64,000 bases of DNA from Chlorobiota bacterium (GTDB lineage Bacteria; Bacteroidota; Ignavibacteria; Kapaibacteriales; UBA2268), in assembly GCA_046290495.1 (NCBI GenBank), contig JBKAGT010000006.1, forward strand, positions 50,056-114,055. The letters run 5' to 3'. Under the pieces are notes generated by a model. It was not told the DNA's origin and ran no database searches. It saw only the letters and a list, made by a program, of their open reading frames with translations. Both the position numbers and the translations under genes were made by a program. Position 1 is the stretch's first letter, and the number at the start of each line of letters is the position of its first letter. Shown here piece by piece: positions 25,145 to 60,637 of this stretch.

Positions 25145-28100
25145 ATGATTAATAGAATAATCGATTTCTCTGTTGAGAATCGTGTAGCTATTGGTGCACT
25201 TACTGTGTTGCTAATAGTAGCTGGTATATGGAGTATGAACAAAGTACCCATAGATGCAGTGCCGGATATAACCAACAACCAAGTTCAGATTATCACCCAA
25301 GCTCCAAATTTAGCGACAGTGGATATAGAGCAATTCGTTACTTACCCCGTGGAGTTAGAAATGTCTAACCTGCCAGGTGTTACCGAAATTCGCTCAGTTT
25401 CCAGATTTGGACTGTCAGTTGTTACGGTTGTGTTCGAAGATGATATGGGTACATATTTGCCCCGTCAGTTAGTTCAAGAAAAATTAGAAAAAGTAAGAGA
25501 TAAGATTCCAGAGCAATTTGGCTCGCCAGATATGGGACCAATTAGTACGGGACTAGGGGAAATATACCAATATAGTTTAGAGGTTGATAGTTCCATGAAA
25601 GGCAAGTACTCGCTAGCTGACTTGAGGAGTTTCCAAGACTGGATAGTGAACAGACAAATGGCTATGGTACCAGGAGTTGTTGAGGTAAATAGTTTTGGAG
25701 GTAAGATAAAGCAATATGAGATTGCAATAGAGCCAGAGAAGCTAAAAGCTATGAATCTTACCATTTCCGATGTATTTGATGCACTAAAGAGGAATAATGA
25801 GAATACAGGTGGTGCTTACATTGTCAAAAACCATTTGGCTAATTATATCCGTGGCGAAGGACTTATCAGAAACACCAAAGATATTGAGCGTATAAAGGTA
25901 GCCACCAAGGAAGGAATTCCGATTATGGTCGGTGATATTGCCATTGTCCAAATAGGTAGTGCAGTTCGCTATGGTGCATTCACAAGAAATGGTGAAGGTG
26001 AAGCAGTTGGTGGTATGGTTATGCTTCTTAAGGGGGCAAACTCCAATGAAGTAATTACAGCCGTAAAAGAAAGAGTAGAACAAATTCAATCATCACTTCC
26101 GAAAGGTATTAGGATTGTTCCATTTTTAGATAGAAGTGAATTAATTAGTGATACTACTAGCACTGTAGCTACTAACTTGATAGAAGGTGGGCTAATAGTG
26201 ATTTTCGTTCTAGTTATCTTCTTGGGTAACTGGCGTGGTGGATTAATAGTAGCTTCTACTATCCTGTTATCGCTGCTTTTTGCATTCATTATGATGTATG
26301 CCTTTGATGTCTGGGCAAACTTAATGAGTTTAGGCGCTATTGACTTCGGTATCATTGTTGATGGTGCAGTGATAATCGTTGAAGGTACGGTATTCGGCAT
26401 TACTCAAAAATTGAAAAAATCAGGCGAGAATATTGGTAAAGATGATATTAAAAATATAGCTAAGAGTTCATCTAAAAAAATGATGAATTCGGCATTCTTT
26501 GGTCAGCTTATTATTCTGATTGTATTTATTCCAATTCTCACTCTAGAGGGTATAGAGGGAAAGATGTTCAAACCGATGGCATTAACATTTGGTTTTGCTA
26601 TGTTGGGTGCTATGTTGCTATGTCTGACTTATGTTCCTATGATGTCAGCGACATTTTTAAAGAGTACGAACAAGGTTAGCATTGGTGATAAGATAGTACA
26701 TTTCCTTGAAAGATTGTACACCAAAGCATTGAGTTTTGTGATTCGCTTCTCTAAAAGCTTTATCATAACTTTAGGTGCATTACTTGGGTTTACAATTTAT
26801 CTGTTCACTAATTTGGGTGGTGAGTTTATTCCTCAGCTTGATGAGGGGGACATTGCTTTTCATATTATGCTGAAGCCTGGCTCCTCGATAGAGGAGTCAG
26901 TTAAAGCCGCAACAGAAGTAGAGAAATTAATAATGACCGAATTCCCAGAAATTGAACAAGCAATGTCAAAATTTGGTGTTTCAGAAGTTCCTACAGACCC
27001 AATGCCAATGGACATTGGTGATTGTATAGTAAAGCTAAAACCTAAAGATGAATGGTCTTCAGCGAGTACTAAAGATGAGTTGATTGCTAAAATGAAGAAA
27101 GTTCTACAAACTATACCAGGTTTGAACTATGAATTTTCTCAGCCAATTGAAATGAGATTCAATGAACTTATATCAGGTGTAAGACAAGACATAGCAATCA
27201 AAATATTTGGCGAAGATTTGGATTTATTGGCAGAGAAAGCTGAAGAAGTGCAGTCACTTTTAGCTGGTATTCAAGGAATAGGTGATATGTCTGTAGAAGC
27301 AACTTCAGGTCTATCACAGATTACAGTTGATTACGATAGAGCTAAATTAGCTCAATACGATATTGATATTTCAGAAGCAAACGAATTACTCAAAACTGCT
27401 TTTGCAGGTGGCAAAGCAGGTGTTATATTCGAAGGGGAAAAACGCTTCGATATGGTAGTTCGGCTGAATAGCGATAATAGAAAAAGCATAGAAGATATAA
27501 AGTATTTATATATAAATACACCTGAAGGGACACAGTTGCCACTTAGTGAAGTTGCTAACGTGCAATATGTGGAAGGCCCTATGCAAATTGGCCGCGACAA
27601 CACTAACAGGAGGGTTTACGTTGGAATAAACGTAAGAGACAGGGACATAGAAACCCTGATGGAAGAGATAAAAGCTAAGCTTAGCTCTGAGTTAGAATTG
27701 CCTGCTGGTTATTACATTACTTATGGTGGTGCTTTCGAGAATTTGGAAAGGGCTATGAGCAAGCTAACTGTTGTTATACCTCTTGTACTATTGCTTATAT
27801 TTATATTGATATACTTTGCATTGAAGTCATTCAAATATACTTCGCTTATCTTTTTAGCAATACCGTTTGCTACTATTGGAGGAGTGTTGTCGCTATGGTT
27901 GAGGGGCTTACCATTTAGTATATCAGCGGGGGTTGGTTTTATAGTGCTTTTTGGTGTTGCCGTTCTCAACGGATTAGTTCTACTTAATGGACTGGAAGAA
28001 CTAAAAGAAGAGCTACCAAATGCAGATATGGATGAGAGAATAAAAAAAGGAACTGTAAGAAGAGTTCGACCGATATTACTAACTGCTCTTACTGATGTTC

Positions 28101-29485
28101 TCGGATTTTTCCCTATGGCAATTAGTATGTCCGCTGGTGCAGAAGTACAAAGACCCTTAGCCACAGTTGTTATCGGTGGACTTTTTACATCTACTTTACT
28201 TACACTTTTCTTATTACCAATACTATACAGATGGCTGGAGACTTATAAGATGAAAAGAATTCCTAATGTTGCTACGGCTATAATAGCTATTTTCATTGTA
28301 CTGATTGGTTCTAATGATAAAGCATTATCACAAGATAAAATAGAGTTAGAGCAGTATGAGCAGATAACATTGCAAGAAGCAACTGAGATAGCTAAGAAAA
28401 ATTACCCTCTGATGAAAATAAGTGATTTGAAGGTAGAAAAGGCTAATAAGCAGAAGAAAAAAGCGATAAACTTTGGAACTACGCAGATATTCACTGGAGC
28501 AGAGGAGAGAGGAAATGGGCTCGATGGAGTAGAGAGTGTTATTGGGGTTAGTCAGAACAACATAGATTTATTCGGTTCTTTTGCTCGAGGAGATTATTAC
28601 TCAAAGAATAGTGAATTAGCTGAAGCAAGCAGAGCATTGACTGAACTAGAGCTTGAGAAGTTAGTAGCTAAAAGATGGGTAAATTTAAACTATGCTAAGA
28701 GCAGATACTATTTCTTCTATTCTCTTGATTCGTTGTTGAGTGGAGTAAATAAATATAATAATTCAAGGTATGAAGCAGAGGCAATATCTGGATTGGAGTA
28801 TTCTGTAACTAAATCAAATTATATAGAAATAAGGAATAAGCTATCCCAATCAAAGGCAGATGTGTTGAGTGCTACTCATTTATTTAATCAACTATTATCC
28901 GATGAACAAACCTACACTACAACAGGGGATAAATTTGAATTAGAGGAGATGACCTCTAATATTAGCTTGGAGCAGCATCCAATGTTGCAGTATCAGCAAA
29001 AACAAGTTGAACTTAGTGAGTCGAATTTAGATATAAATTACAGCAAGCTATACCCAAAGATAAATGGTCAATATAGAGTGCAAAATATACAAGGTCAGTC
29101 AGGATTCTATGCATATCAATTTGGGATTTCTGTACCACTAATATTCAATTCTGTATCTGGAGATATAGGAGCAGCTGAACAAGAAGTTATGATAAGAAAA
29201 GAAATGTATGAAATGCAACGATTGGAGCTGGAAGCCAATTACAAAGCTCAACTCGCTGAGTATGAGAAGTGGCGTGATTCCTATGTGTTCTACCGCTCAG
29301 AGGTTATACCATTGGCAAAAGAAATAAAAGACAAGTCATACTTACGCTACAAAAGTGGCGAGATTGACTATATGGACTTTGTTCAAAGTATAGAGAAAGT
29401 AGTAAAAATGGAAGAAGAGTATTTGAAATCGATGAGCAAATACTTTGAAGCTTATGTCAATATGAAATATTATAATAGCAAATAA
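25145..29485 (+). CDS. CusA/CzcA-family heavy-metal efflux RND permease fused in frame to a TolC-like outer membrane factor domain
   Basis: 1446 aa. Residues about 1-1035 are CzcA-like (12 TM helices, two large periplasmic loops, ending ..LLPILYRWLE). The frame continues with no stop into MKRIPNVATAIIAIFIVLIGSNDKALSQ (signal-peptide-like), then about 400 aa with OMF character (..ITLQEATEIAKKNYPLMK.. and coiled-coil-rich repeats). Confidence 0.85.
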   Translation: MINRIIDFSVENRVAIGALTVLLIVAGIWSMNKVPIDAVPDITNNQVQIITQAPNLATVDIEQFVTYPVELEMSNLPGVTEIRSVSRFGLSVVTVVFEDDMGTYLPRQLVQEKLEKVRDKIPEQFGSPDMGPISTGLGEIYQYSLEVDSSMKGKYSLADLRSFQDWIVNRQMAMVPGVVEVNSFGGKIKQYEIAIEPEKLKAMNLTISDVFDALKRNNENTGGAYIVKNHLANYIRGEGLIRNTKDIERIKVATKEGIPIMVGDIAIVQIGSAVRYGAFTRNGEGEAVGGMVMLLKGANSNEVITAVKERVEQIQSSLPKGIRIVPFLDRSELISDTTSTVATNLIEGGLIVIFVLVIFLGNWRGGLIVASTILLSLLFAFIMMYAFDVWANLMSLGAIDFGIIVDGAVIIVEGTVFGITQKLKKSGENIGKDDIKNIAKSSSKKMMNSAFFGQLIILIVFIPILTLEGIEGKMFKPMALTFGFAMLGAMLLCLTYVPMMSATFLKSTNKVSIGDKIVHFLERLYTKALSFVIRFSKSFIITLGALLGFTIYLFTNLGGEFIPQLDEGDIAFHIMLKPGSSIEESVKAATEVEKLIMTEFPEIEQAMSKFGVSEVPTDPMPMDIGDCIVKLKPKDEWSSASTKDELIAKMKKVLQTIPGLNYEFSQPIEMRFNELISGVRQDIAIKIFGEDLDLLAEKAEEVQSLLAGIQGIGDMSVEATSGLSQITVDYDRAKLAQYDIDISEANELLKTAFAGGKAGVIFEGEKRFDMVVRLNSDNRKSIEDIKYLYINTPEGTQLPLSEVANVQYVEGPMQIGRDNTNRRVYVGINVRDRDIETLMEEIKAKLSSELELPAGYYITYGGAFENLERAMSKLTVVIPLVLLLIFILIYFALKSFKYTSLIFLAIPFATIGGVLSLWLRGLPFSISAGVGFIVLFGVAVLNGLVLLNGLEELKEELPNADMDERIKKGTVRRVRPILLTALTDVLGFFPMAISMSAGAEVQRPLATVVIGGLFTSTLLTLFLLPILYRWLETYKMKRIPNVATAIIAIFIVLIGSNDKALSQDKIELEQYEQITLQEATEIAKKNYPLMKISDLKVEKANKQKKKAINFGTTQIFTGAEERGNGLDGVESVIGVSQNNIDLFGSFARGDYYSKNSELAEASRALTELELEKLVAKRWVNLNYAKSRYYFFYSLDSLLSGVNKYNNSRYEAEAISGLEYSVTKSNYIEIRNKLSQSKADVLSATHLFNQLLSDEQTYTTTGDKFELEEMTSNISLEQHPMLQYQQKQVELSESNLDINYSKLYPKINGQYRVQNIQGQSGFYAYQFGISVPLIFNSVSGDIGAAEQEVMIRKEMYEMQRLELEANYKAQLAEYEKWRDSYVFYRSEVIPLAKEIKDKSYLRYKSGEIDYMDFVQSIEKVVKMEEEYLKSMSKYFEAYVNMKYYNSK

Positions 29486-35925: not shown

Positions 35926-38900
35926 ATGAAACAATCGTTTACTAAATTGGCATTTATGCTACTTTTAGCTTTAACTATGGCACTTCCAAGCACTTTGTTT
36001 AGTGGTGTAGATGAAGCTGAAATGACTGAAAAGCTACCTGCTTTACTTGGTCAAGACAATATGGGGCGTGAATTTTGGTTCGCGATTCCACCAGTATATG
36101 AAGAAGTAGCTGGTGATAACTTCGTTAGAGTCTTAGTGACAAGTGATGTAGAGACAGATGTTGTCATTCAAGTAGAAGGTAAAGGGGTTTATAAGAAAAA
36201 AACTACAATCCCAAATAGTGTAATTGACTTTGAATTGAATCCTGCACAAGCACAACCGATTCCACATAGATTGGGTACTCATATTTCACCACCAGCAAAA
36301 ATATATAAAGGTGCAGGTGTACAAGTATCAGCAGACCAACCAATCGTTGTTTATGTAGTAATCAAATACAAATATACTTCAGATGGTTTCCTAGCTCTTC
36401 CTGTTTCTGGATTAGGTGATAGATACATCAATATGGTTTACCAAGATCCAGCTTTGGGTGGTGCTAATAGCCACGCACCAGCATTCACTTGTGTTACGGG
36501 TGTTTATGACAATACTCAAGTCAATATGACTATGGGTGGTGGCCCTATGGGTAGTGATAAAATGAAGTTAGATGGTGGTAGAGAATTAGCAACTGGTGAC
36601 CAAACATCATTCTTCTTAGATAGAGGTGATGTATGGATGGGTGCTTCTAGTGGCCATTTTCAAGATATTTCTGGTTCATTGTTCGAAGGTACGAAGCCAT
36701 TCGCAATAGTTTCTGGTATGCACTGTGCTAACTTCCCGGTTGGGAATGCTTGGTGTGATTATACAGTAGAAATGGAATTACCAACTTATGCTTGGGGTAA
36801 ACAATACTATATTACTCCTATGGAAGGTAGAACTTATAATGGTATAATCAGAATTTATGCCGCAGAAGACAATACTACAATTTATAGAAATGGTCAAGTA
36901 ATGGGTTTACTTACTCATGGTGGTGGTAATACGATAGGTAAAGCTTATATGGAGATGAGAGTCTGGCCAAAACTTGATGACTTCGGCCAAGCAATAAGAC
37001 CAAAAATTGCTACTATCCATGCTGACAAACCAATTGCAGTGATGTATTATAATACTGGTACACAAGAAGATGTTGGTACTGCAGATAGTGATCCATTCCA
37101 ATTATTCTTTACTCCTATTGAGCAATTCCAAACGGAAATATTATTCCCTTCACCTAATGCATTAGGTGGGACAGATTTTTATACTAAGAATTATGTGAAC
37201 ATTGTTTATGAAATGCACGAGGATTTCATACCTCAAGATTTAATGTTTGCTAAAATGGAAGTTGGAAGAGATCCGGACTGGAAACCAGTTTCTCAAGTAG
37301 TGGCTGGTGCTCCTAGAGTATTTACTGAAAAATACCAAGGAAAGGAATTTGGTACTTCTACTCTATCCTTACCTACAGAAGGTGTGTTTTCACTAAGGTC
37401 AGACTCAACTAAATTTGTTGCGTATTCTTATGGGTTTGCTTCATACGAGTCTTACGGTTTCCCTACTTCTGCTGCACTTCGTGATTTATCTTCACCTGAC
37501 ACGAACGCTCCAGTTCCTAATTACGTTCAAGAATGTAATGGTGATGTACTAAAAGACATGGGTACAGTAACTGATATGCCAGAAGATGATGAAGTAAGAT
37601 CAAATATGGCAGATTTATACCTAATAGAAAACTTAAATGATAATTATGTACTAGACTATAGAATACCGGGAACTAACAATAAAGATTTCATTCCTGGTGA
37701 GCAAAGAACATTATCATGGTGGTTAACTGTAGTTGACAAAACTCAGCCTGCAAGAGCTACTATAGCTTTCTTAGATAGAGCTGGTAATGACACTACTATT
37801 ACGATTAGCTACGATCCACCTGAGTTTGAAGTAGTAAGCGGTAATGCATTTGGTGTTATGGCTGCTTCTGATGCTCCTGTGGTAATGCAAGATACAATAA
37901 GAAACTTATCTACTACAGTACCTCAGTATATAACTAAGGTTGAGTTGCAAGATGGTGGTCAAGGATTTAGTATAGCTAGTTTTGAACCTGCTGGTTGGAC
38001 GCCGCCAATGGAAATTGGTCCAGGTGAAGAAGTTATTGTAAATATAGAGTTTGATCCAGCGGCTGCTGCTGCTAGTGGAGAAAAAGCAATTTACATAGAC
38101 TCGCTTGGTGTAGGTTATGGAGATGAGGATTTCAATGAGTGTGGATTTGCTTACTTCACTGAACAATCTGGTTCTCTGGGAGTTCCAGTAATCGAAGTAA
38201 CTGATTGGGACTTCGGCACAAGAAATATAAACGAAGTAACTCCTGACACTAGAATTATGACTATAACCAACACTGGTGATGAGATGCTAAGAATTACAGG
38301 TATCTCACAAGATTTACCTGCTGGTTCTATGTTCACTCATAACTTCATGACTTTATTCCCTGATGTATCTGTTGATACACCTTTAGAAATTGCACCAGGT
38401 GACTTAGTAGAGTTTCAAGTAGGATTTATGCCTACAGCTGTTGGAACTTATGCTGAAAACATTGTATTTGATAATAATACTAAAGATGGTAATACTACAG
38501 ATCATATCTGTGAATTGAAAGGTGTTGGTACTGATGCCCCTGTTTCTGCTGATGGTTATGTATGGCAAGGTGTTTTAATTAATAGACCTGCTACATTCCC
38601 TGCTGGACCTTATGATGTTGATGTAGATAGTCAACATGATGGATTCATAGTAAAGAATCTTGGTGATGCTGATGGAGACATAGCGCAAGTTGTTTCTATA
38701 AATATTGTTAGCGAAACTCCAAATGCAAGAGAATACTTCAGAACGAAGAACGGTGACGAAAATATCGTTGACTTCTTAAATAATAGTATTAGAGGACTAA
38801 ACTTAGCTGGAGATGTTACTAGAGAAGAAGCTATAGTCTTTAATCCTACTGAAAAAGGTCTTCACAGAATTGAGTTTGAATTAGTATTCAATGAAGAAAC

Positions 38901-40521
38901 TGGTAATGCAACATTACCTGTAGTTTATGAAGGTATTGGTGAAGCACCAAATGTCGAGGTAACAAATGTAACATTTGCACCTATGTTAGTTAACGATGAA
39001 GCTAATGCTCAAACTACTGGTGTGATGACAATTACTAATACTGATGATGAATATGGTCATCCTCTGAATATAACTGGAATTTCATTCGATAATGCTATTG
39101 TTAGCGATGATATTGCTGATTTCCAAGGACTAACATTCAGATATGATGGTAATTTATATCAAGACTTAGTAGATGGTAATATTATTCTGAATAAAGGTCA
39201 AAGTTTAAACATCCCAGTACATTTCGTAGCAAGACAAGTAGGAAATAATTCTGTAGTTGCAACGATTGAGTCGAATGCATACGTAGATGGTCCTGATTAC
39301 GATAATGATTCTGATTGGAATGGTGTAGGTACAGATCTAATTGTAAATATTAGTTCTCCTTATACTCTATTATGTCTAAATGAAACTGAATTTATTAATA
39401 TTACATTATCAAATCCTGGAACTGATAACCCAGTAACCATAAATGAGTTATCATTATCTGATTATGATTTAGACGGAGACGGTGTTGATGACTTATTCAT
39501 TACTTCTCCAACAACTAACGTAACAGTACCAGTGAATGGTGATGTCAATGTAGTTGTAGAATACACTCCTACTGGTTTAATCAACAGACAGTTTGTAGAG
39601 CTTATTATCGATCATGATTATGGTAATAATTTGGCAATCAATGGTGCAGATGAAGCATTAGAAGTTGAATCAGAATTCTTCGTTGGTAATACTCAGACAA
39701 ATGTAACTGGTGCTAGCAGTAGTAATCCTACAAATCCTGATTATGATACAGAGTATATGGTGTCAATTGGCGATGAATTCGAATATCAAATTGGATTAAC
39801 TGGTAACGCATCAGGAACTGATGCACAGACAATTACTGTAAATATTAATTATAATAGTTTGTTTACATCACCTTTGATTGAAGAAGGTAACAATATGCCT
39901 AATATTACTAGTGAAGCTAGTGCAGAAGTACAACCGGGATCTTATTCCGTAGCTCCTGATGCGAACGGCCCTAAAGGTAGTATGGTTATGACATTTACTC
40001 TACAAAGCACAGATGGTAGTTCTATATTTGCTAACAATAATATAATTGCTAGTGTTCCATTCAGAGTTGTACTTCCTGCAGTAAATGAGGAAGGTGCTCT
40101 AGGTGAAATTGGACAAGATGACGATTCTTATGGAAGATTCGATATGAGTCATACTCTAACTGATTTACCAACTTGTTATGCACACACTGAAGACGATGTG
40201 TTATTAGCAATCGAAGAGATTTGTGTTGGTGATTACAGAGCACTTTATGTTAGTGACTTTAACTTCGGTGAACCAAATGTAACTCCTAACCCTGCAAGTT
40301 CTGCAGCGACTATAGAGTACACGGTGCCTTATGATATGCCTGGTGAGATTATATTGTATAACTCAGCTATGCAACAAGTTAAGACACTTTACAGTGGTGA
40401 GATGAAAGAAGGTGTTAGAACAGCTGATGTTCCTGTTAGTGAACTTTCAAATGGTACTTACTTCTTCACTGTTAAGATTGGTGAAAAACAACAAATGGGT
40501 AGAATAGTTATTGAGAAATAA
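35926..40521 (+). CDS. giant secreted surface/adhesin-like protein with IgGFc-binding-N-terminal-like domain and T9SS C-terminal sorting domain
   Basis: 1531 aa. Signal peptide. N-terminal region (..GREFWFAIPPVYEE..VLVTSDVETDVVIQV..) paralogous to the N-terminus of 56254..58617. Long beta-rich middle. C-terminus VTPNPASSAATIEYTVPYDMPGEIILYNSAMQQVKTLYSGEM...GTYFFTVKIGEKQQMGRIVIEK. Confidence 0.8.
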   Translation: MKQSFTKLAFMLLLALTMALPSTLFSGVDEAEMTEKLPALLGQDNMGREFWFAIPPVYEEVAGDNFVRVLVTSDVETDVVIQVEGKGVYKKKTTIPNSVIDFELNPAQAQPIPHRLGTHISPPAKIYKGAGVQVSADQPIVVYVVIKYKYTSDGFLALPVSGLGDRYINMVYQDPALGGANSHAPAFTCVTGVYDNTQVNMTMGGGPMGSDKMKLDGGRELATGDQTSFFLDRGDVWMGASSGHFQDISGSLFEGTKPFAIVSGMHCANFPVGNAWCDYTVEMELPTYAWGKQYYITPMEGRTYNGIIRIYAAEDNTTIYRNGQVMGLLTHGGGNTIGKAYMEMRVWPKLDDFGQAIRPKIATIHADKPIAVMYYNTGTQEDVGTADSDPFQLFFTPIEQFQTEILFPSPNALGGTDFYTKNYVNIVYEMHEDFIPQDLMFAKMEVGRDPDWKPVSQVVAGAPRVFTEKYQGKEFGTSTLSLPTEGVFSLRSDSTKFVAYSYGFASYESYGFPTSAALRDLSSPDTNAPVPNYVQECNGDVLKDMGTVTDMPEDDEVRSNMADLYLIENLNDNYVLDYRIPGTNNKDFIPGEQRTLSWWLTVVDKTQPARATIAFLDRAGNDTTITISYDPPEFEVVSGNAFGVMAASDAPVVMQDTIRNLSTTVPQYITKVELQDGGQGFSIASFEPAGWTPPMEIGPGEEVIVNIEFDPAAAAASGEKAIYIDSLGVGYGDEDFNECGFAYFTEQSGSLGVPVIEVTDWDFGTRNINEVTPDTRIMTITNTGDEMLRITGISQDLPAGSMFTHNFMTLFPDVSVDTPLEIAPGDLVEFQVGFMPTAVGTYAENIVFDNNTKDGNTTDHICELKGVGTDAPVSADGYVWQGVLINRPATFPAGPYDVDVDSQHDGFIVKNLGDADGDIAQVVSINIVSETPNAREYFRTKNGDENIVDFLNNSIRGLNLAGDVTREEAIVFNPTEKGLHRIEFELVFNEETGNATLPVVYEGIGEAPNVEVTNVTFAPMLVNDEANAQTTGVMTITNTDDEYGHPLNITGISFDNAIVSDDIADFQGLTFRYDGNLYQDLVDGNIILNKGQSLNIPVHFVARQVGNNSVVATIESNAYVDGPDYDNDSDWNGVGTDLIVNISSPYTLLCLNETEFINITLSNPGTDNPVTINELSLSDYDLDGDGVDDLFITSPTTNVTVPVNGDVNVVVEYTPTGLINRQFVELIIDHDYGNNLAINGADEALEVESEFFVGNTQTNVTGASSSNPTNPDYDTEYMVSIGDEFEYQIGLTGNASGTDAQTITVNINYNSLFTSPLIEEGNNMPNITSEASAEVQPGSYSVAPDANGPKGSMVMTFTLQSTDGSSIFANNNIIASVPFRVVLPAVNEEGALGEIGQDDDSYGRFDMSHTLTDLPTCYAHTEDDVLLAIEEICVGDYRALYVSDFNFGEPNVTPNPASSAATIEYTVPYDMPGEIILYNSAMQQVKTLYSGEMKEGVRTADVPVSELSNGTYFFTVKIGEKQQMGRIVIEK

Positions 40522-55572: not shown

Positions 55573-56244
55573 TTAATCTTTGTAAATGAAATCAAAAAGC
55601 AAATACGAAGCAGTAGCAATTGCTCCCCCGTAAGCAATTATCTGATTAACATCAGCATATATTCTATCAAAGGATGCACCTACGATGCTTAGAATAGTTG
55701 CATCTATAGCTAAAAGTAGTATGGGTAGCAATAGTGGAAATGCTAGTACTGGGAACAATGCACCCTTGGATGATGATTTAGCAATTAATGCAGATATGAT
55801 TGTAGAAGATGCTGATATACCAAAACTACCTACTAATATGCAGAGCCAAAATAAATCCAGATGCATGATTTCGAAATTGGAGTTGAACAATATAAGTAAG
55901 AATACTCCTAGTGAGTTTGCTATCAGTCCAAATAATATATTATATAATATTTTACCAAAGAAAATACTTGTAGAATCAGAGTTTATTTTAAGAAATAACC
56001 ATGTATCTCTTTCTTCTTCATTAACAAAAATTCTCGATTGCCCTATCATAGAAGTGAAGAAAATTAGTACCCAAGTTATACCTGCGAACAGTTCGTCAGA
56101 TATATGCTTGGCAGATATAGCATAGCTAATAATAATAACAGAAGTTAGAACAAAAAGAAAAACAGCAGATGCAGAAGACAGATTTTTAATTTCAGTCTTA
56201 AGCTCTTTTTGAAGAACTCCATTTATTCTTTTTAGTGCTTCCAT
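55573..56244 (-). CDS. CcmB-like (heme exporter protein B / ABC-2-type) membrane protein
   Basis: 223 aa, 6 TM helices. Weak but collinear similarity to E. coli CcmB (..ALFPVLAFPLLLPILLLAIDATI.. vs ..SILVLPLTIPLLIFATAAMDAAS..). No ccmA or ccmC adjacent. Confidence 0.5.
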   Translation of the reverse strand: MEALKRINGVLQKELKTEIKNLSSASAVFLFVLTSVIIISYAISAKHISDELFAGITWVLIFFTSMIGQSRIFVNEEERDTWLFLKINSDSTSIFFGKILYNILFGLIANSLGVFLLILFNSNFEIMHLDLFWLCILVGSFGISASSTIISALIAKSSSKGALFPVLAFPLLLPILLLAIDATILSIVGASFDRIYADVNQIIAYGGAIATASYLLFDFIYKD

Positions 56245-56253
56245 GTTCTTACA

Positions 56254-58617
56254 TTATAGTGGGAATCTGAAACCAGCTCTGACACCAAATGTTGACACAC
56301 TCCAATCTGCATCATCAACCATATTAGTAAGTCTGTTTGAATAGGTAGCTTCAAAGAAAGTCTGAGTGCTATTATAGACATTAATCCTAAATCCAATACC
56401 TATATTTGCTGCGATACCAATAGTATTTAAAGACGAAAGCTCAGTTTGAGGTAAATCTAAAGTATTAGTCTGATTCTCAAAAACATAGTCCTCTGGTATT
56501 ATTATCTCTTTCTCAGCTTCTATCGTACTACTGAGTGGAATATCGAATTGCAAACCACCATGTAAGTAAATATTGTTTGTCATTAGGTATTCAAGCCCAA
56601 TAACAACATTTGTAAACAGTCCTGTCAATTCAAAATTTACAGATTCTTTATAGTCGTCTAACTCACCTGTGTTGGGATTTCTTGTTGAGCTCGTTGTTGA
56701 ATCCGGTGCTTTTAGCTTACCGTCATAATTCATGAAATTCAAGCGTCCAATTAGATTGAGTTTCTCGTCTACTCTATACGCAGCCAATGCTCCAAACTCC
56801 ATAGAAGTGGATGCAATATCACTAAAAGTACCTTTAGATGTAATATTACCTGTATTACTGAAATCAGCGCTATGGTTCACATAGTTATAACCAATTGAAA
56901 CACCTATTTCCCACGGTATAGTTTCAGCACAGCTTACTTCGTGTCCTTCTTGTAGCTGATACTGATATCTATTGGCTACCTGATTGAATGTATAGCAGAG
57001 TGTATATTTTGATTTATTGCCAGCCATGTCAGTAGCTATTAATTTCACTGATTGGTTTTTCGAATATTTATTACTTCCAAAGTTACTTATTACCAATGGT
57101 GTACCTGGTTCATATTCTAAAGTCTCGAAATCAAAACCCGTGTTGTCCGTGAACTCGACATTTGCAACACCGCGGTCATTATTTCTATCATCTCTAATCA
57201 ATAGTTTGAACCCATCTGCACCGTTATCATAGTCAACTAGAGGAGCTTCTGTATCTGGTGCTTCTATGTATTCCATAAATGACTGGCCACCCAGTGAGCC
57301 ATAAGCATCATACCTATCATCACCAAAACCAAAGCCGTAACTTGTCATACCGAATGGTTCGCTACACTCTATTACGTGTGTTCCGTAATTTACACCAACT
57401 TGTGCAAATGAATAACGGCTATTGCCTAATTTCCTGAAGCTATTGACGTCAAGTCTAATTCCATTTAATCTAATTGATTCTAATGCATTAGTTGGTGCCA
57501 CTACATTCACGAAGTGCTCCCATGAGCCATCTACAGGGGTGGCGAATCTATACTTTTTCAAAAACTGCTGGGTAGGACTAATAAGCAACATCATTGGGTC
57601 ACCAATTCTATCACCATTGTCAAACCCTTGTGAAAATTGTGCCACAAGTACTGGGTTAGTTGCCGTTATTTGAACAGATTTTTTAGTTTCTCTTTCTAAG
57701 TGTTGACCAGCATTCAGCGTTCCAATAAGCTTGTTATTCTCAAAAACTTTTGTGCCATCTTCGTTTGCCAATACTCTATAATTGTAAAAACTTCTCTTTT
57801 TGAAAGCTCCTATGTAGAAGTGCTTACCCCAAGAATTCAATGGTGGTACTTGCTCAACCAAGTGATTACAAGCAATTACATCTGTTGGAACATAAGCACA
57901 CTGGTGCCCACTAAATACAGCTATTTTTTTGTTTGATTCAACAAGTGAGCCAGTCAAATCACAGTCATCAATACATTTTTCATAATTAGCTGCTGCAACT
58001 TGGTAAACATCACCTTTATTAAGTACCACTTTAAATGGTACACCTCTTTTGTGTCCACCATCAGTATCAACAGTTGGAGTTATAGTTACTTCTGTTTTGT
58101 CTTCAGTTGCTACTATTGCAAACTCTGCCATTAGTTTTATTGAAACATCATAACACATAACTCTATAGGTTTGCCCTAATACATTAACAGGAAATCCCAT
58201 AAATGTATCAGTAGTCAATTTCCTTCTGTTCAGACCATATACAGATATAGGAACATCTGAAGTAACGTGTATTCCTCTTCCACTCTCTATTATTTCTGAA
58301 CTAGTAACTTGTGCGAGATTAGATATTTGTATTGCTTTTACAGTGCCACCTTTAACAAAAATGTCCTCACTGAAACCAATGCTTTTAATTCTAATCTTTA
58401 CATTTGCATCCTTGTCAGAAGTTAGGAAAAGCTTAAGGTCTAATGGTGTTACATTCGGGTTGTCGCGCGTTGCATTATTATGATTTCGCATAAAACACAG
58501 CCAAAATTCTGTCCCTTCTGGGCTTTTTTCAGTTAATATTTTATCTCTATCAACTTGAGCGAAAGCAAAAAAAGAAGTAGCTATGATTAGTATTATTATT
58601 ATGGCAATCTTTCTCAT
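56254..58617 (-). CDS. secreted protein with IgGFc-binding-N-terminal-like domain and C-terminal outer-membrane beta-barrel-like domain (autotransporter-like architecture)
   Basis: 787 aa. Signal peptide. The N-terminal half is paralogous to the 35926 gene N-terminus (EFWLCFMRNHN.. / ..GDVYQVAAA). The C-terminal about 230 aa has alternating amphipathic strands ending ..STFGVRAGFRFPL. Confidence 0.75.
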   Translation of the reverse strand: MRKIAIIIILIIATSFFAFAQVDRDKILTEKSPEGTEFWLCFMRNHNNATRDNPNVTPLDLKLFLTSDKDANVKIRIKSIGFSEDIFVKGGTVKAIQISNLAQVTSSEIIESGRGIHVTSDVPISVYGLNRRKLTTDTFMGFPVNVLGQTYRVMCYDVSIKLMAEFAIVATEDKTEVTITPTVDTDGGHKRGVPFKVVLNKGDVYQVAAANYEKCIDDCDLTGSLVESNKKIAVFSGHQCAYVPTDVIACNHLVEQVPPLNSWGKHFYIGAFKKRSFYNYRVLANEDGTKVFENNKLIGTLNAGQHLERETKKSVQITATNPVLVAQFSQGFDNGDRIGDPMMLLISPTQQFLKKYRFATPVDGSWEHFVNVVAPTNALESIRLNGIRLDVNSFRKLGNSRYSFAQVGVNYGTHVIECSEPFGMTSYGFGFGDDRYDAYGSLGGQSFMEYIEAPDTEAPLVDYDNGADGFKLLIRDDRNNDRGVANVEFTDNTGFDFETLEYEPGTPLVISNFGSNKYSKNQSVKLIATDMAGNKSKYTLCYTFNQVANRYQYQLQEGHEVSCAETIPWEIGVSIGYNYVNHSADFSNTGNITSKGTFSDIASTSMEFGALAAYRVDEKLNLIGRLNFMNYDGKLKAPDSTTSSTRNPNTGELDDYKESVNFELTGLFTNVVIGLEYLMTNNIYLHGGLQFDIPLSSTIEAEKEIIIPEDYVFENQTNTLDLPQTELSSLNTIGIAANIGIGFRINVYNSTQTFFEATYSNRLTNMVDDADWSVSTFGVRAGFRFPL

Positions 58618-59300
58618 TTCATCACCATAAATCTTTGTTTCAATACTTTGAAATCTGTCTGAATAACTAGTAAATAAGCTCCAGCAGCAAGCGCATAGCT
58701 GTCATTTCTTAGCTCTAGTGTGTATTCTCCAGGCATTAGTAACTCTGTGCCATCGTATGTATTGCCTTCACTGTCAATGAGCTTGAAGTGCCTTTCTAAG
58801 CAATCTTCATAACAGAAATTACTTAGCATATTAGAACCACCAATATTATAAGTGGCTATCTGGATTCTAGTTGGTTTAGTTAGCTCTATTTTAGCTTGTG
58901 AAAACACATTAAACGGATTCGGATAGAAGTCAGAAATGTAAGATTTGTCGACTTCTTGTACTGGTTCAGGGATTGTAATAACACCTGAGTCAAAGTTTGT
59001 ATTTGCATTGCTCTGATTTAATGTAAAGCTAACTAGATTTACTTTGCTGTTTCATCTGTATGTAATATTTCGAATTGAATATAAAGTATACCTTCATCAG
59101 AGGTGAAAGCCATATTCAAAATTTATCTAAACTAGATGCTGAAATTTTCATTTTAACTGATTTACAAATGTTACACCTTGATTTCAGTACATTCCATGAC
59201 ATAGACTTCATTTCCAACATAAGCATTGTACTCTAACTCCAAATTGAAAGAGTTATCAGTATCTAAATAGATATAATCATCTATATCATTGATATAACAG
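58614..59300 (-). pseudogene. decayed T9SS-cargo gene remnant (orphan T9SS C-terminal domain preceded by frameshifted fragments)
   Basis: The 58614..58907 ORF begins with GTG and encodes only ..FYPNPFNVFSQAKIEL...LIDSEGNTYDGTELLMPGEYTLELRNDSYALAAGAYLLVIQTDFKVLKQRFMVMK (a T9SS CTD). That frame is open upstream to a TGA with no start. Further upstream, coding-like fragments (MAFTSDEGILYIQFEILHTDETAK; ..DDYIYLDTDNSFNLELEYNAYVGNEVYVMECTEIKV) sit in other frames. Confidence 0.5.
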
Positions 59301-60091
59301 TATGTTTATAATCTCTTTGGGTGGTATGTATGATGGAAAATGTTGTAGCAAGCCAAGATAACTAATTGAAAAATAAAATTGTATAAATGAGCTTCATATA
59401 TAACTTTTGTCGTTTTATTGTTCCTTTTATCTACAAAAATATAATATTTTGTATTTTTTATTTCTGTTTTTTCTTCTTTGCAGCCTGACAAAATATTATT
59501 AAGAATTAGTTGTAACCAGGAAATTTTTGTGCAAGTAAATCAGTTGGAGGTCACCAATGCCATGTCTATAATCTTCATGGTTTACCTATAAAATTATGGA
59601 CTGAATTACATGAATATCGGACTTCATTTGTTTCTCTTCAGCTAATATTGTAACTGATTTCTTAATCTTCTCTTTAGCAAATGTTGTTGTCCCAAATCAT
59701 GCACAATACCCGTGCATTGAGTTAGCAGTGGGAACAGGGTCATATTTTGCAGAAAATCCGAACAGAGTAAAGTAATCACTCTCAGGATTGTCAATGTATA
59801 ACGACATCAATGTCAGAATATTCATTTCGGCTGGGTTCATTCTTAGATTAAAATCCTTGAAAGAAATGTACTAGTTAATCAAGCTTACTCTGAGCATCTG
59901 GGTTTGGCATCGCCATCCATCATCGAAGCAAATTCTATCATTTCAGCCAGCGCAAGGCAATATCGTAAGAATCAGCAGAGCACAGCGAATAGAAATCACC
60001 ACGGCTACATATTCTTTGATTGTCTTGCTACGAAGCTTCATTGTGAAACTTAGAATACCGTTCGAGCATGTTTTCGTTGAGCTACTTGTTG

Positions 60092-60637
60092 TTACCAAGG
60101 GTAATTTCTATAATTCGCCCAGAACTTACCAACTGACCTGTGAAATCTCGTGTGCAAATGAAGCCAATCATAATCTTTTAGCTTTCCTTTTAGAACATCT
60201 TCGTCCCACACCATGTCATACTCCACCTCAGCATATTCCAAAGCCATACGGACGGCATCGTCCCACGGTTGTGTCCCTTTTGGTACATACACTGCTATTT
60301 TCGGTGTTTTTTCTAATTTCACTACGTCTTGGTTTACATTGTCCGCTTGCACTTGTGAGTATATTTCACTCGCATTTCCGTCAGATACTTGCTCAAAAGA
60401 CACACCTCTGATTCTACATTCCAGAACGATTTTTTCATTCATGTCCATCATAAATGAGCCATCGCGGTAGTTGAGTAACCAATCTACTGGCTGTCCATTT
60501 TTAATTACCCAAAAGGCAATCCCATATGCTTTCAGGTGGTTTGTTTGTGCCAAGTCCATTGGTATCAATAGTTTTTCAGCGCGAACAGCTCCAAGCGATA
60601 AGATTCCTATTAATAAATATAGTAATGTTTTTTTCAT
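60092..60637 (-). CDS. hypothetical secreted protein, probably a C-terminally truncated gene
   Basis: 181 aa. Signal peptide MKKTLLYLLIGILSLGAVRA. Downstream (59550..60091), further minus-strand coding-like fragments in shifted frames suggest the original gene was about twice as long. Confidence 0.5.
   Translation of the reverse strand: MKKTLLYLLIGILSLGAVRAEKLLIPMDLAQTNHLKAYGIAFWVIKNGQPVDWLLNYRDGSFMMDMNEKIVLECRIRGVSFEQVSDGNASEIYSQVQADNVNQDVVKLEKTPKIAVYVPKGTQPWDDAVRMALEYAEVEYDMVWDEDVLKGKLKDYDWLHLHTRFHRSVGKFWANYRNYPW

Follow-up and report, generated by a model that had tools for sequence, protein, structure and literature searches.

A 787-aa protein encoded in the window (the whole 64,000-nt stretch of DNA that was analysed) raises the question of how a protein with an IgGFc_binding domain is anchored in the outer membrane of a T9SS organism. 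The original prediction proposed self-anchoring through a C-terminal barrel, type V-like or OmpA-like, rather than T9SS attachment. That a T9SS organism also has a type V system is an attractive reading but, in our judgement, the wrong one, and is corrected here. Our best overall explanation, with a probability of about 65%, is that the protein is a self-anchored OmpA-class barrel protein that has its N-terminal domains at the periplasmic face of the outer membrane and is coupled to a T9SS-cargo partner. The features of the gene, and of a paralog in the window, are:

56254..58617, minus strand: 787-aa gene, ATG start (ORF list)
58558..58617, minus strand: Sec signal peptide, aa 1–20, MRKIAIIIILIIATSFFAFA (by inspection, and AF2 helix at aa 2–18)
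57334..58209, minus strand: IgGFc_binding domain PF17517, aa 137–428 (Pfam)
56947..57255, minus strand: all-beta middle module, aa ~455–557, about 8 strands (AF2 secondary structure)
56914..56946, minus strand: short linker, aa 558–568 (~11 aa), with invariant C563
56257..56913, minus strand: predicted C-terminal outer-membrane beta-barrel, aa 569–787 (~220 aa)
35926..40521, plus strand: 1531-aa paralog with IgGFc_binding domain, Ig-like/choice-of-anchor D modules, and T9SS type-A tail

The protein comprises, in order, a signal peptide, an IgGFc_binding domain, a beta-sandwich module, a short Cys-containing linker, and a C-terminal outer-membrane beta-barrel, the last of these by prediction. 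The open reading frame and the signal peptide of the original prediction are both confirmed, the latter by inspection, which places cleavage after AFA and before QV and finds no lipobox Cys. Its 722 homologs are mostly full length (~790–800 aa), and an AF2 model of the full-length protein has a pLDDT of 83 and a pTM of 0.67. Searched by sequence against the PDB, the whole protein finds no match, and the only database name for such proteins is "IgGFc-binding protein". The PF17517 match covers profile positions 1–297 of 297 (E=6e-79; 265.9 bits vs a cut-off of 25.6), recurs in 36 of 36 orthologs, and contains the invariant motif G237-H-Q-C240...A249-C-N-H252. The mature N-terminus (aa 20–34) shows no conservation and no predicted strand (AF2), and pLDDT lies below 50 at aa 20–28.

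Paralogy of the N-terminal domain to a giant T9SS protein, also predicted originally, is borne out by the 1531-aa ORF, with which the 787-aa protein shares PF17517 and 24% identity over aa 19–463 (BLASTP, E=5e-32). The paralogous stretch is thus wider than the PF17517 domain and reaches the PDTxAP motif that follows it. The C-terminus of the 1531-aa paralog is a type-A T9SS sorting domain (PF18962, E=1e-5; TIGR04183, E=1e-4; both just below curated cut-offs), and this paralog is presumably exported to, and attached at, the cell surface. The 787-aa protein, in contrast, carries a membrane barrel in place of the T9SS tail: it matches neither the type-A models TIGR04183 and PF18962 nor the type-B model TIGR04131 at E<=1, and it is not a T9SS cargo. 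A second giant ORF (25145..29485) encodes an AcrB+OEP protein unrelated to the 787-aa protein. We know of no function for bacterial PF17517 domains, and literature searches on PF17517, on IgGFc-binding with T9SS, and on Kapabacteria with T9SS returned nothing relevant.

Amphipathic beta-strands occupy the C-terminal ~220 aa and end in ...FGVRAGFRFPL, as predicted, in both the sequence and the AF2 model. The model points to an antiparallel transmembrane barrel, probably closed, that finishes in a beta-signal (R-A-G-F-R-F-P-L); all its strands are contiguous at aa 569–786, and the best structural matches are 8-stranded outer-membrane barrels, although DSSP assigns 10 strand segments. Mean-field DCA of 165–286 barrel sequences, applied to strand number (8 vs 10) and strand pairing, yielded gap artefacts and then noise (Meff about 143). 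Long conserved loops, confidently modelled, lie at 585–600, 631–652, 708–733, and 763–771, with tight turns in between. Such conservation is unusual in exposed loops, though the loop motifs (HSxDF, PxxYxYxNG, and DxDW) recur in OmpA-type relatives and in stand-alone relatives.

We assign the C-terminal domain, with high confidence, to the OmpA/OmpX class of membrane barrels. Its sequence relationships point, more specifically, to the OmpA/OmpX/NspA class (Pfam clan MBB, PF13568-like), a membership that rests on orthologs and profile comparison rather than on the window protein's own match, which for PF13505 is under threshold (E=0.27). Specifically, PF13568 is matched by 14 of the 36 orthologs (best 9.8e-8) and PF13505 by 3, and the barrel family profile aligns with a PF13568 protein at an hhalign probability of 99% (E=5e-18). 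An exhaustive HMMER search with the barrel profile recovers OmpA-type relatives at E values of 1e-14 to 1e-22; a PDB sequence search with the same profile returns no match. A word-indexed search with the profile gave two matches, of 257 and 284 aa, which lie on short contigs and are probably fragments.

Closest among known systems are FCB-group members of the OmpA family that have a PF13568 (OMP_b-brl_2) barrel at the N-terminus (e.g., P0171 and P0190). The 787-aa barrel shows full-length homology to theirs, with common loop motifs and a common final strand of the form G-x-K/R-aromatic-x-hydrophobic. Both kinds of protein would be outer-membrane anchors with a large non-membrane part at the periplasmic barrel end. 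In the 787-aa protein, however, the soluble part precedes the barrel and the last strand is the true C-terminus; the OmpA-family soluble part is a C-terminal OmpA/peptidoglycan-binding domain, whereas that of the 787-aa protein pairs an IgGFc_binding domain with a beta-sandwich module, and the peptidoglycan-binding domain PF00691 is found neither in it nor in its 36 orthologs. The small 8-stranded outer-membrane barrels (NspA, OmpX/Ail, OmpW, and the OmpA and OprF transmembrane domains) share only 5–14% sequence identity with the 787-aa barrel. They stand alone or bear C-terminal extensions, and relative to them the 787-aa barrel (~220 aa) has longer conserved loops and two extra DSSP strand segments. 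An OmpA-class barrel as the C-terminal anchor of an IgGFc_binding domain is an undescribed architecture.

The homology to OmpA-like barrels and the lack of a T9SS tail uphold the OmpA-like half of the self-anchoring proposal; as for the type V-like half, we regard it as highly likely that the protein is not a type V autotransporter. Type Va proteins (e.g., EspP, BrkA, and EstA) have the same linear order: signal peptide, large beta-rich N-terminal part, and C-terminal barrel with a beta-signal. The 787-aa protein lacks their 12-stranded Autotransporter beta-domain (PF03797) and their alpha-helical or extended linker, which runs through the barrel pore to a surface passenger; its own linker is ~11 aa long, contains the invariant C563, and has no predicted helix (AF2), the AF2 secondary structure showing no helix beyond aa 381. 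Models for inverse (PF11924, type Ve) and trimeric (PF03895, type Vc) autotransporters give no match at E<=1. In intimin/invasin (type Ve), the IAT barrel is N-terminal and the passenger C-terminal, whereas the 787-aa barrel is C-terminal. Helicobacter Hop-type adhesins have strand 1 at the extreme N-terminus and the passenger between strands 1 and 2; the 787-aa protein, with no N-terminal strand predicted and with contiguous barrel strands, is unlike them. BamA/TamA, LptD, PgaA, and BcsC combine an N-terminal periplasmic domain with a C-terminal BAM-inserted barrel, the topology proposed here for the 787-aa protein. Their barrels are large (16–26 strands) and serve as functional pores or insertases, and Pfam searches found no homology to them.

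The homology to the OmpA-family barrel is end-to-end, and that barrel leads into a peptidoglycan-binding domain in the periplasm, so both ends of the 787-aa barrel would face the periplasm. With the barrel ends periplasmic and only a short linker before strand 1, the N-terminal domains are most likely periplasmic, a placement that we hold at somewhat better than even odds; the same homology-based topology argues against a surface-exposed passenger. The middle module, modelled at a pLDDT of ~77–93, has a conserved RDDRxDDxG motif and, across the 36 orthologs, invariant columns at D476, D477, D481, G483, and C541. C563 of the linker is likewise invariant, and a probable C541–C563 disulfide would pin the middle module to the rim of the barrel.

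In the proposed pathway, the protein would be exported by Sec and lose its signal peptide after AFA; BAM would recognise the C-terminal beta-signal (..G-F-R-F-P-L) and insert the barrel, BAM dependence being presumed; and the soluble ~550-aa N-terminal part, meeting strand 1 through the short and probably disulfide-locked linker, would most likely be kept at the periplasmic face of the outer membrane rather than displayed as a passenger. The product would be a domain-order-swapped OmpA-type protein, its gene co-transcribed with that of a small T9SS cargo having a cohesin-like domain and a type-A tail. The genes around the 787-aa gene are:

58614..59051, minus strand: partner gene, intact 3′ 145 codons (partner-family hmmsearch, positions 128–273, E=1.4e-43)
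58614..58907, minus strand: 97-aa ORF inside the partner-gene remnant (ORF list)
59044..60152, no strand: deletion-rich stretch (pairwise alignments to L004, L007, and L008)
60092..60637, minus strand: 181-aa ORF, 5′ fragment of a conserved 419-aa secreted protein (identity with the L001 419-aa and L004 78+332-aa products)
55573..56244, minus strand: CcmB-like ABC-2 type membrane protein, 223 aa (PF03379, E=7e-15)

The original prediction placed an orphan CTD pseudogene upstream of the 787-aa gene. An ORF with a T9SS tail does overlap the start there, its TGA stop sharing 4 nt (ATGA) with the 787-aa ATG, and taken alone this 97-aa ORF gives a weak type-A tail match (TIGR04183, E=0.014). It is not an orphan: it is the 3′ end of what is almost certainly a conserved partner gene, the full remnant of which reaches about 59397. 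In relatives, this gene encodes ~270 aa with a signal peptide, a cohesin-like domain (PDB matches to cohesins, E=2e-4), and a T9SS type-A tail (TIGR04183 in 14 of 15 members). Synteny comparison shows that the partner gene, intact in relatives, lies directly upstream of 787-aa orthologs in 69 of 72 loci, and the start/stop overlap recurs across at least 80 species-level genomes. The sequence arrangement suggests that the two genes are probably translationally coupled through the ATGA overlap, and the two proteins probably act together. The 787-aa protein has no dockerin-like module (Pfam, E<=1), so classical cohesin–dockerin pairing is unsupported. We also considered whether the 1531-aa C-terminus, with its weak cohesin match and T9SS tail, represents the partner fused to IgGFc (a "Rosetta stone"), and rejected this: hhalign gives a probability of 0.4%, with a weak tail-to-tail alignment alone. 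PADLOC defence models match none of the three proteins of the block.

Two observations sit awkwardly with periplasmic N-terminal domains: T9SS tails accompany the IgGFc_binding domains of the paralogs, and the conserved partner should, as a T9SS cargo, leave the cell. Both favour an alternative, unlikely in our view, in which the IgGFc_binding domain is surface-displayed via the small barrel, by a type V-like or new route, and meets the T9SS-secreted cohesin partner. The same-genome paralogs, having T9SS tails, would be extracellular; the partner is strictly conserved and translationally coupled; and the order of N-terminal passenger and C-terminal barrel resembles that of type Va. The barrel topology and linker described above speak for the periplasmic placement.

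Equally doubtful, though compatible with periplasmic anchoring, is a role by analogy with PorQ–PorZ, PorV–PorU, and PorP/SprF with type-B tails, in which the barrel protein would be a dedicated outer-membrane anchor or receptor retaining the T9SS partner by its tail or cohesin module, with the periplasmic N-terminal domains touching the secretion machinery or cell wall. The adjacency and overlap of the two genes (69 of 72 loci; at least 80 genomes) and the conserved, confidently modelled loops are consistent with such a role. On the other side, the 787-aa protein shows no similarity to PorP/SprF, PorQ, PorV, or PorT models at E<=1 (Pfam, NCBIfam). HSxDF, PxxYxYxNG, and DxDW are common to OmpA-type and stand-alone relatives for which no such partner has been shown and are therefore not partner-specific, which weakens the idea of the loops as a partner-specific docking site.

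Less likely still, the pair could form a lineage-specific trans-envelope module, with either a small-barrel anchor for T9SS cargo in place of A-LPS/PorP or a new display route with an OmpA-class barrel. If the two proteins interact, they would offer a tractable case of cooperation between BAM-inserted and T9SS-secreted proteins in FCB-group bacteria other than the well-studied Bacteroidia, and the first functional context for bacterial PF17517 domains. A soluble 8-stranded beta-barrel of the lipocalin, YceI, avidin, or TbpB-handle type is very improbable beside the transmembrane barrel described above.

A scenario in which, as originally suggested, the barrel-anchored gene replaced a former T9SS cargo gene or recombined with it, here taken as a recent event that left an orphan CTD pseudogene, would suit the window, in which the 97-aa CTD-like ORF is all that is callable upstream, but this reading fails and is scarcely credible, because the full architecture is shared at 42–47% identity by at least 196 species genomes and the partner gene is conserved at the locus; moreover, the CTD ORF ends a gene intact in relatives, and a window-specific deletion cluster also damages the next gene upstream. 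The barrel-anchored IgGFc gene is old and lineage-wide in Kapabacteria (FCB group; Kapabacteria-type MAGs).

Aligned with relatives, the cluster at 59044..60152 amounts to ~69 small deletions (1–10 bp, 128 bp in total) plus 2 insertions, whereas the substitution rate stays the same. The partner gene loses its 5′ part to the cluster, and the 419-aa gene its 3′ part. It is likely an assembly or sequencing artefact, and ORF fragments in this assembly should be checked against relatives before being read as pseudogenes. The 419-aa gene, the remnant of which continues to about 59456, lies upstream in 29 of 64 loci, and its product matches nothing in Pfam, NCBIfam, or the PDB. In 41 of 74 loci, the CcmB-like gene lies immediately downstream in the same orientation.

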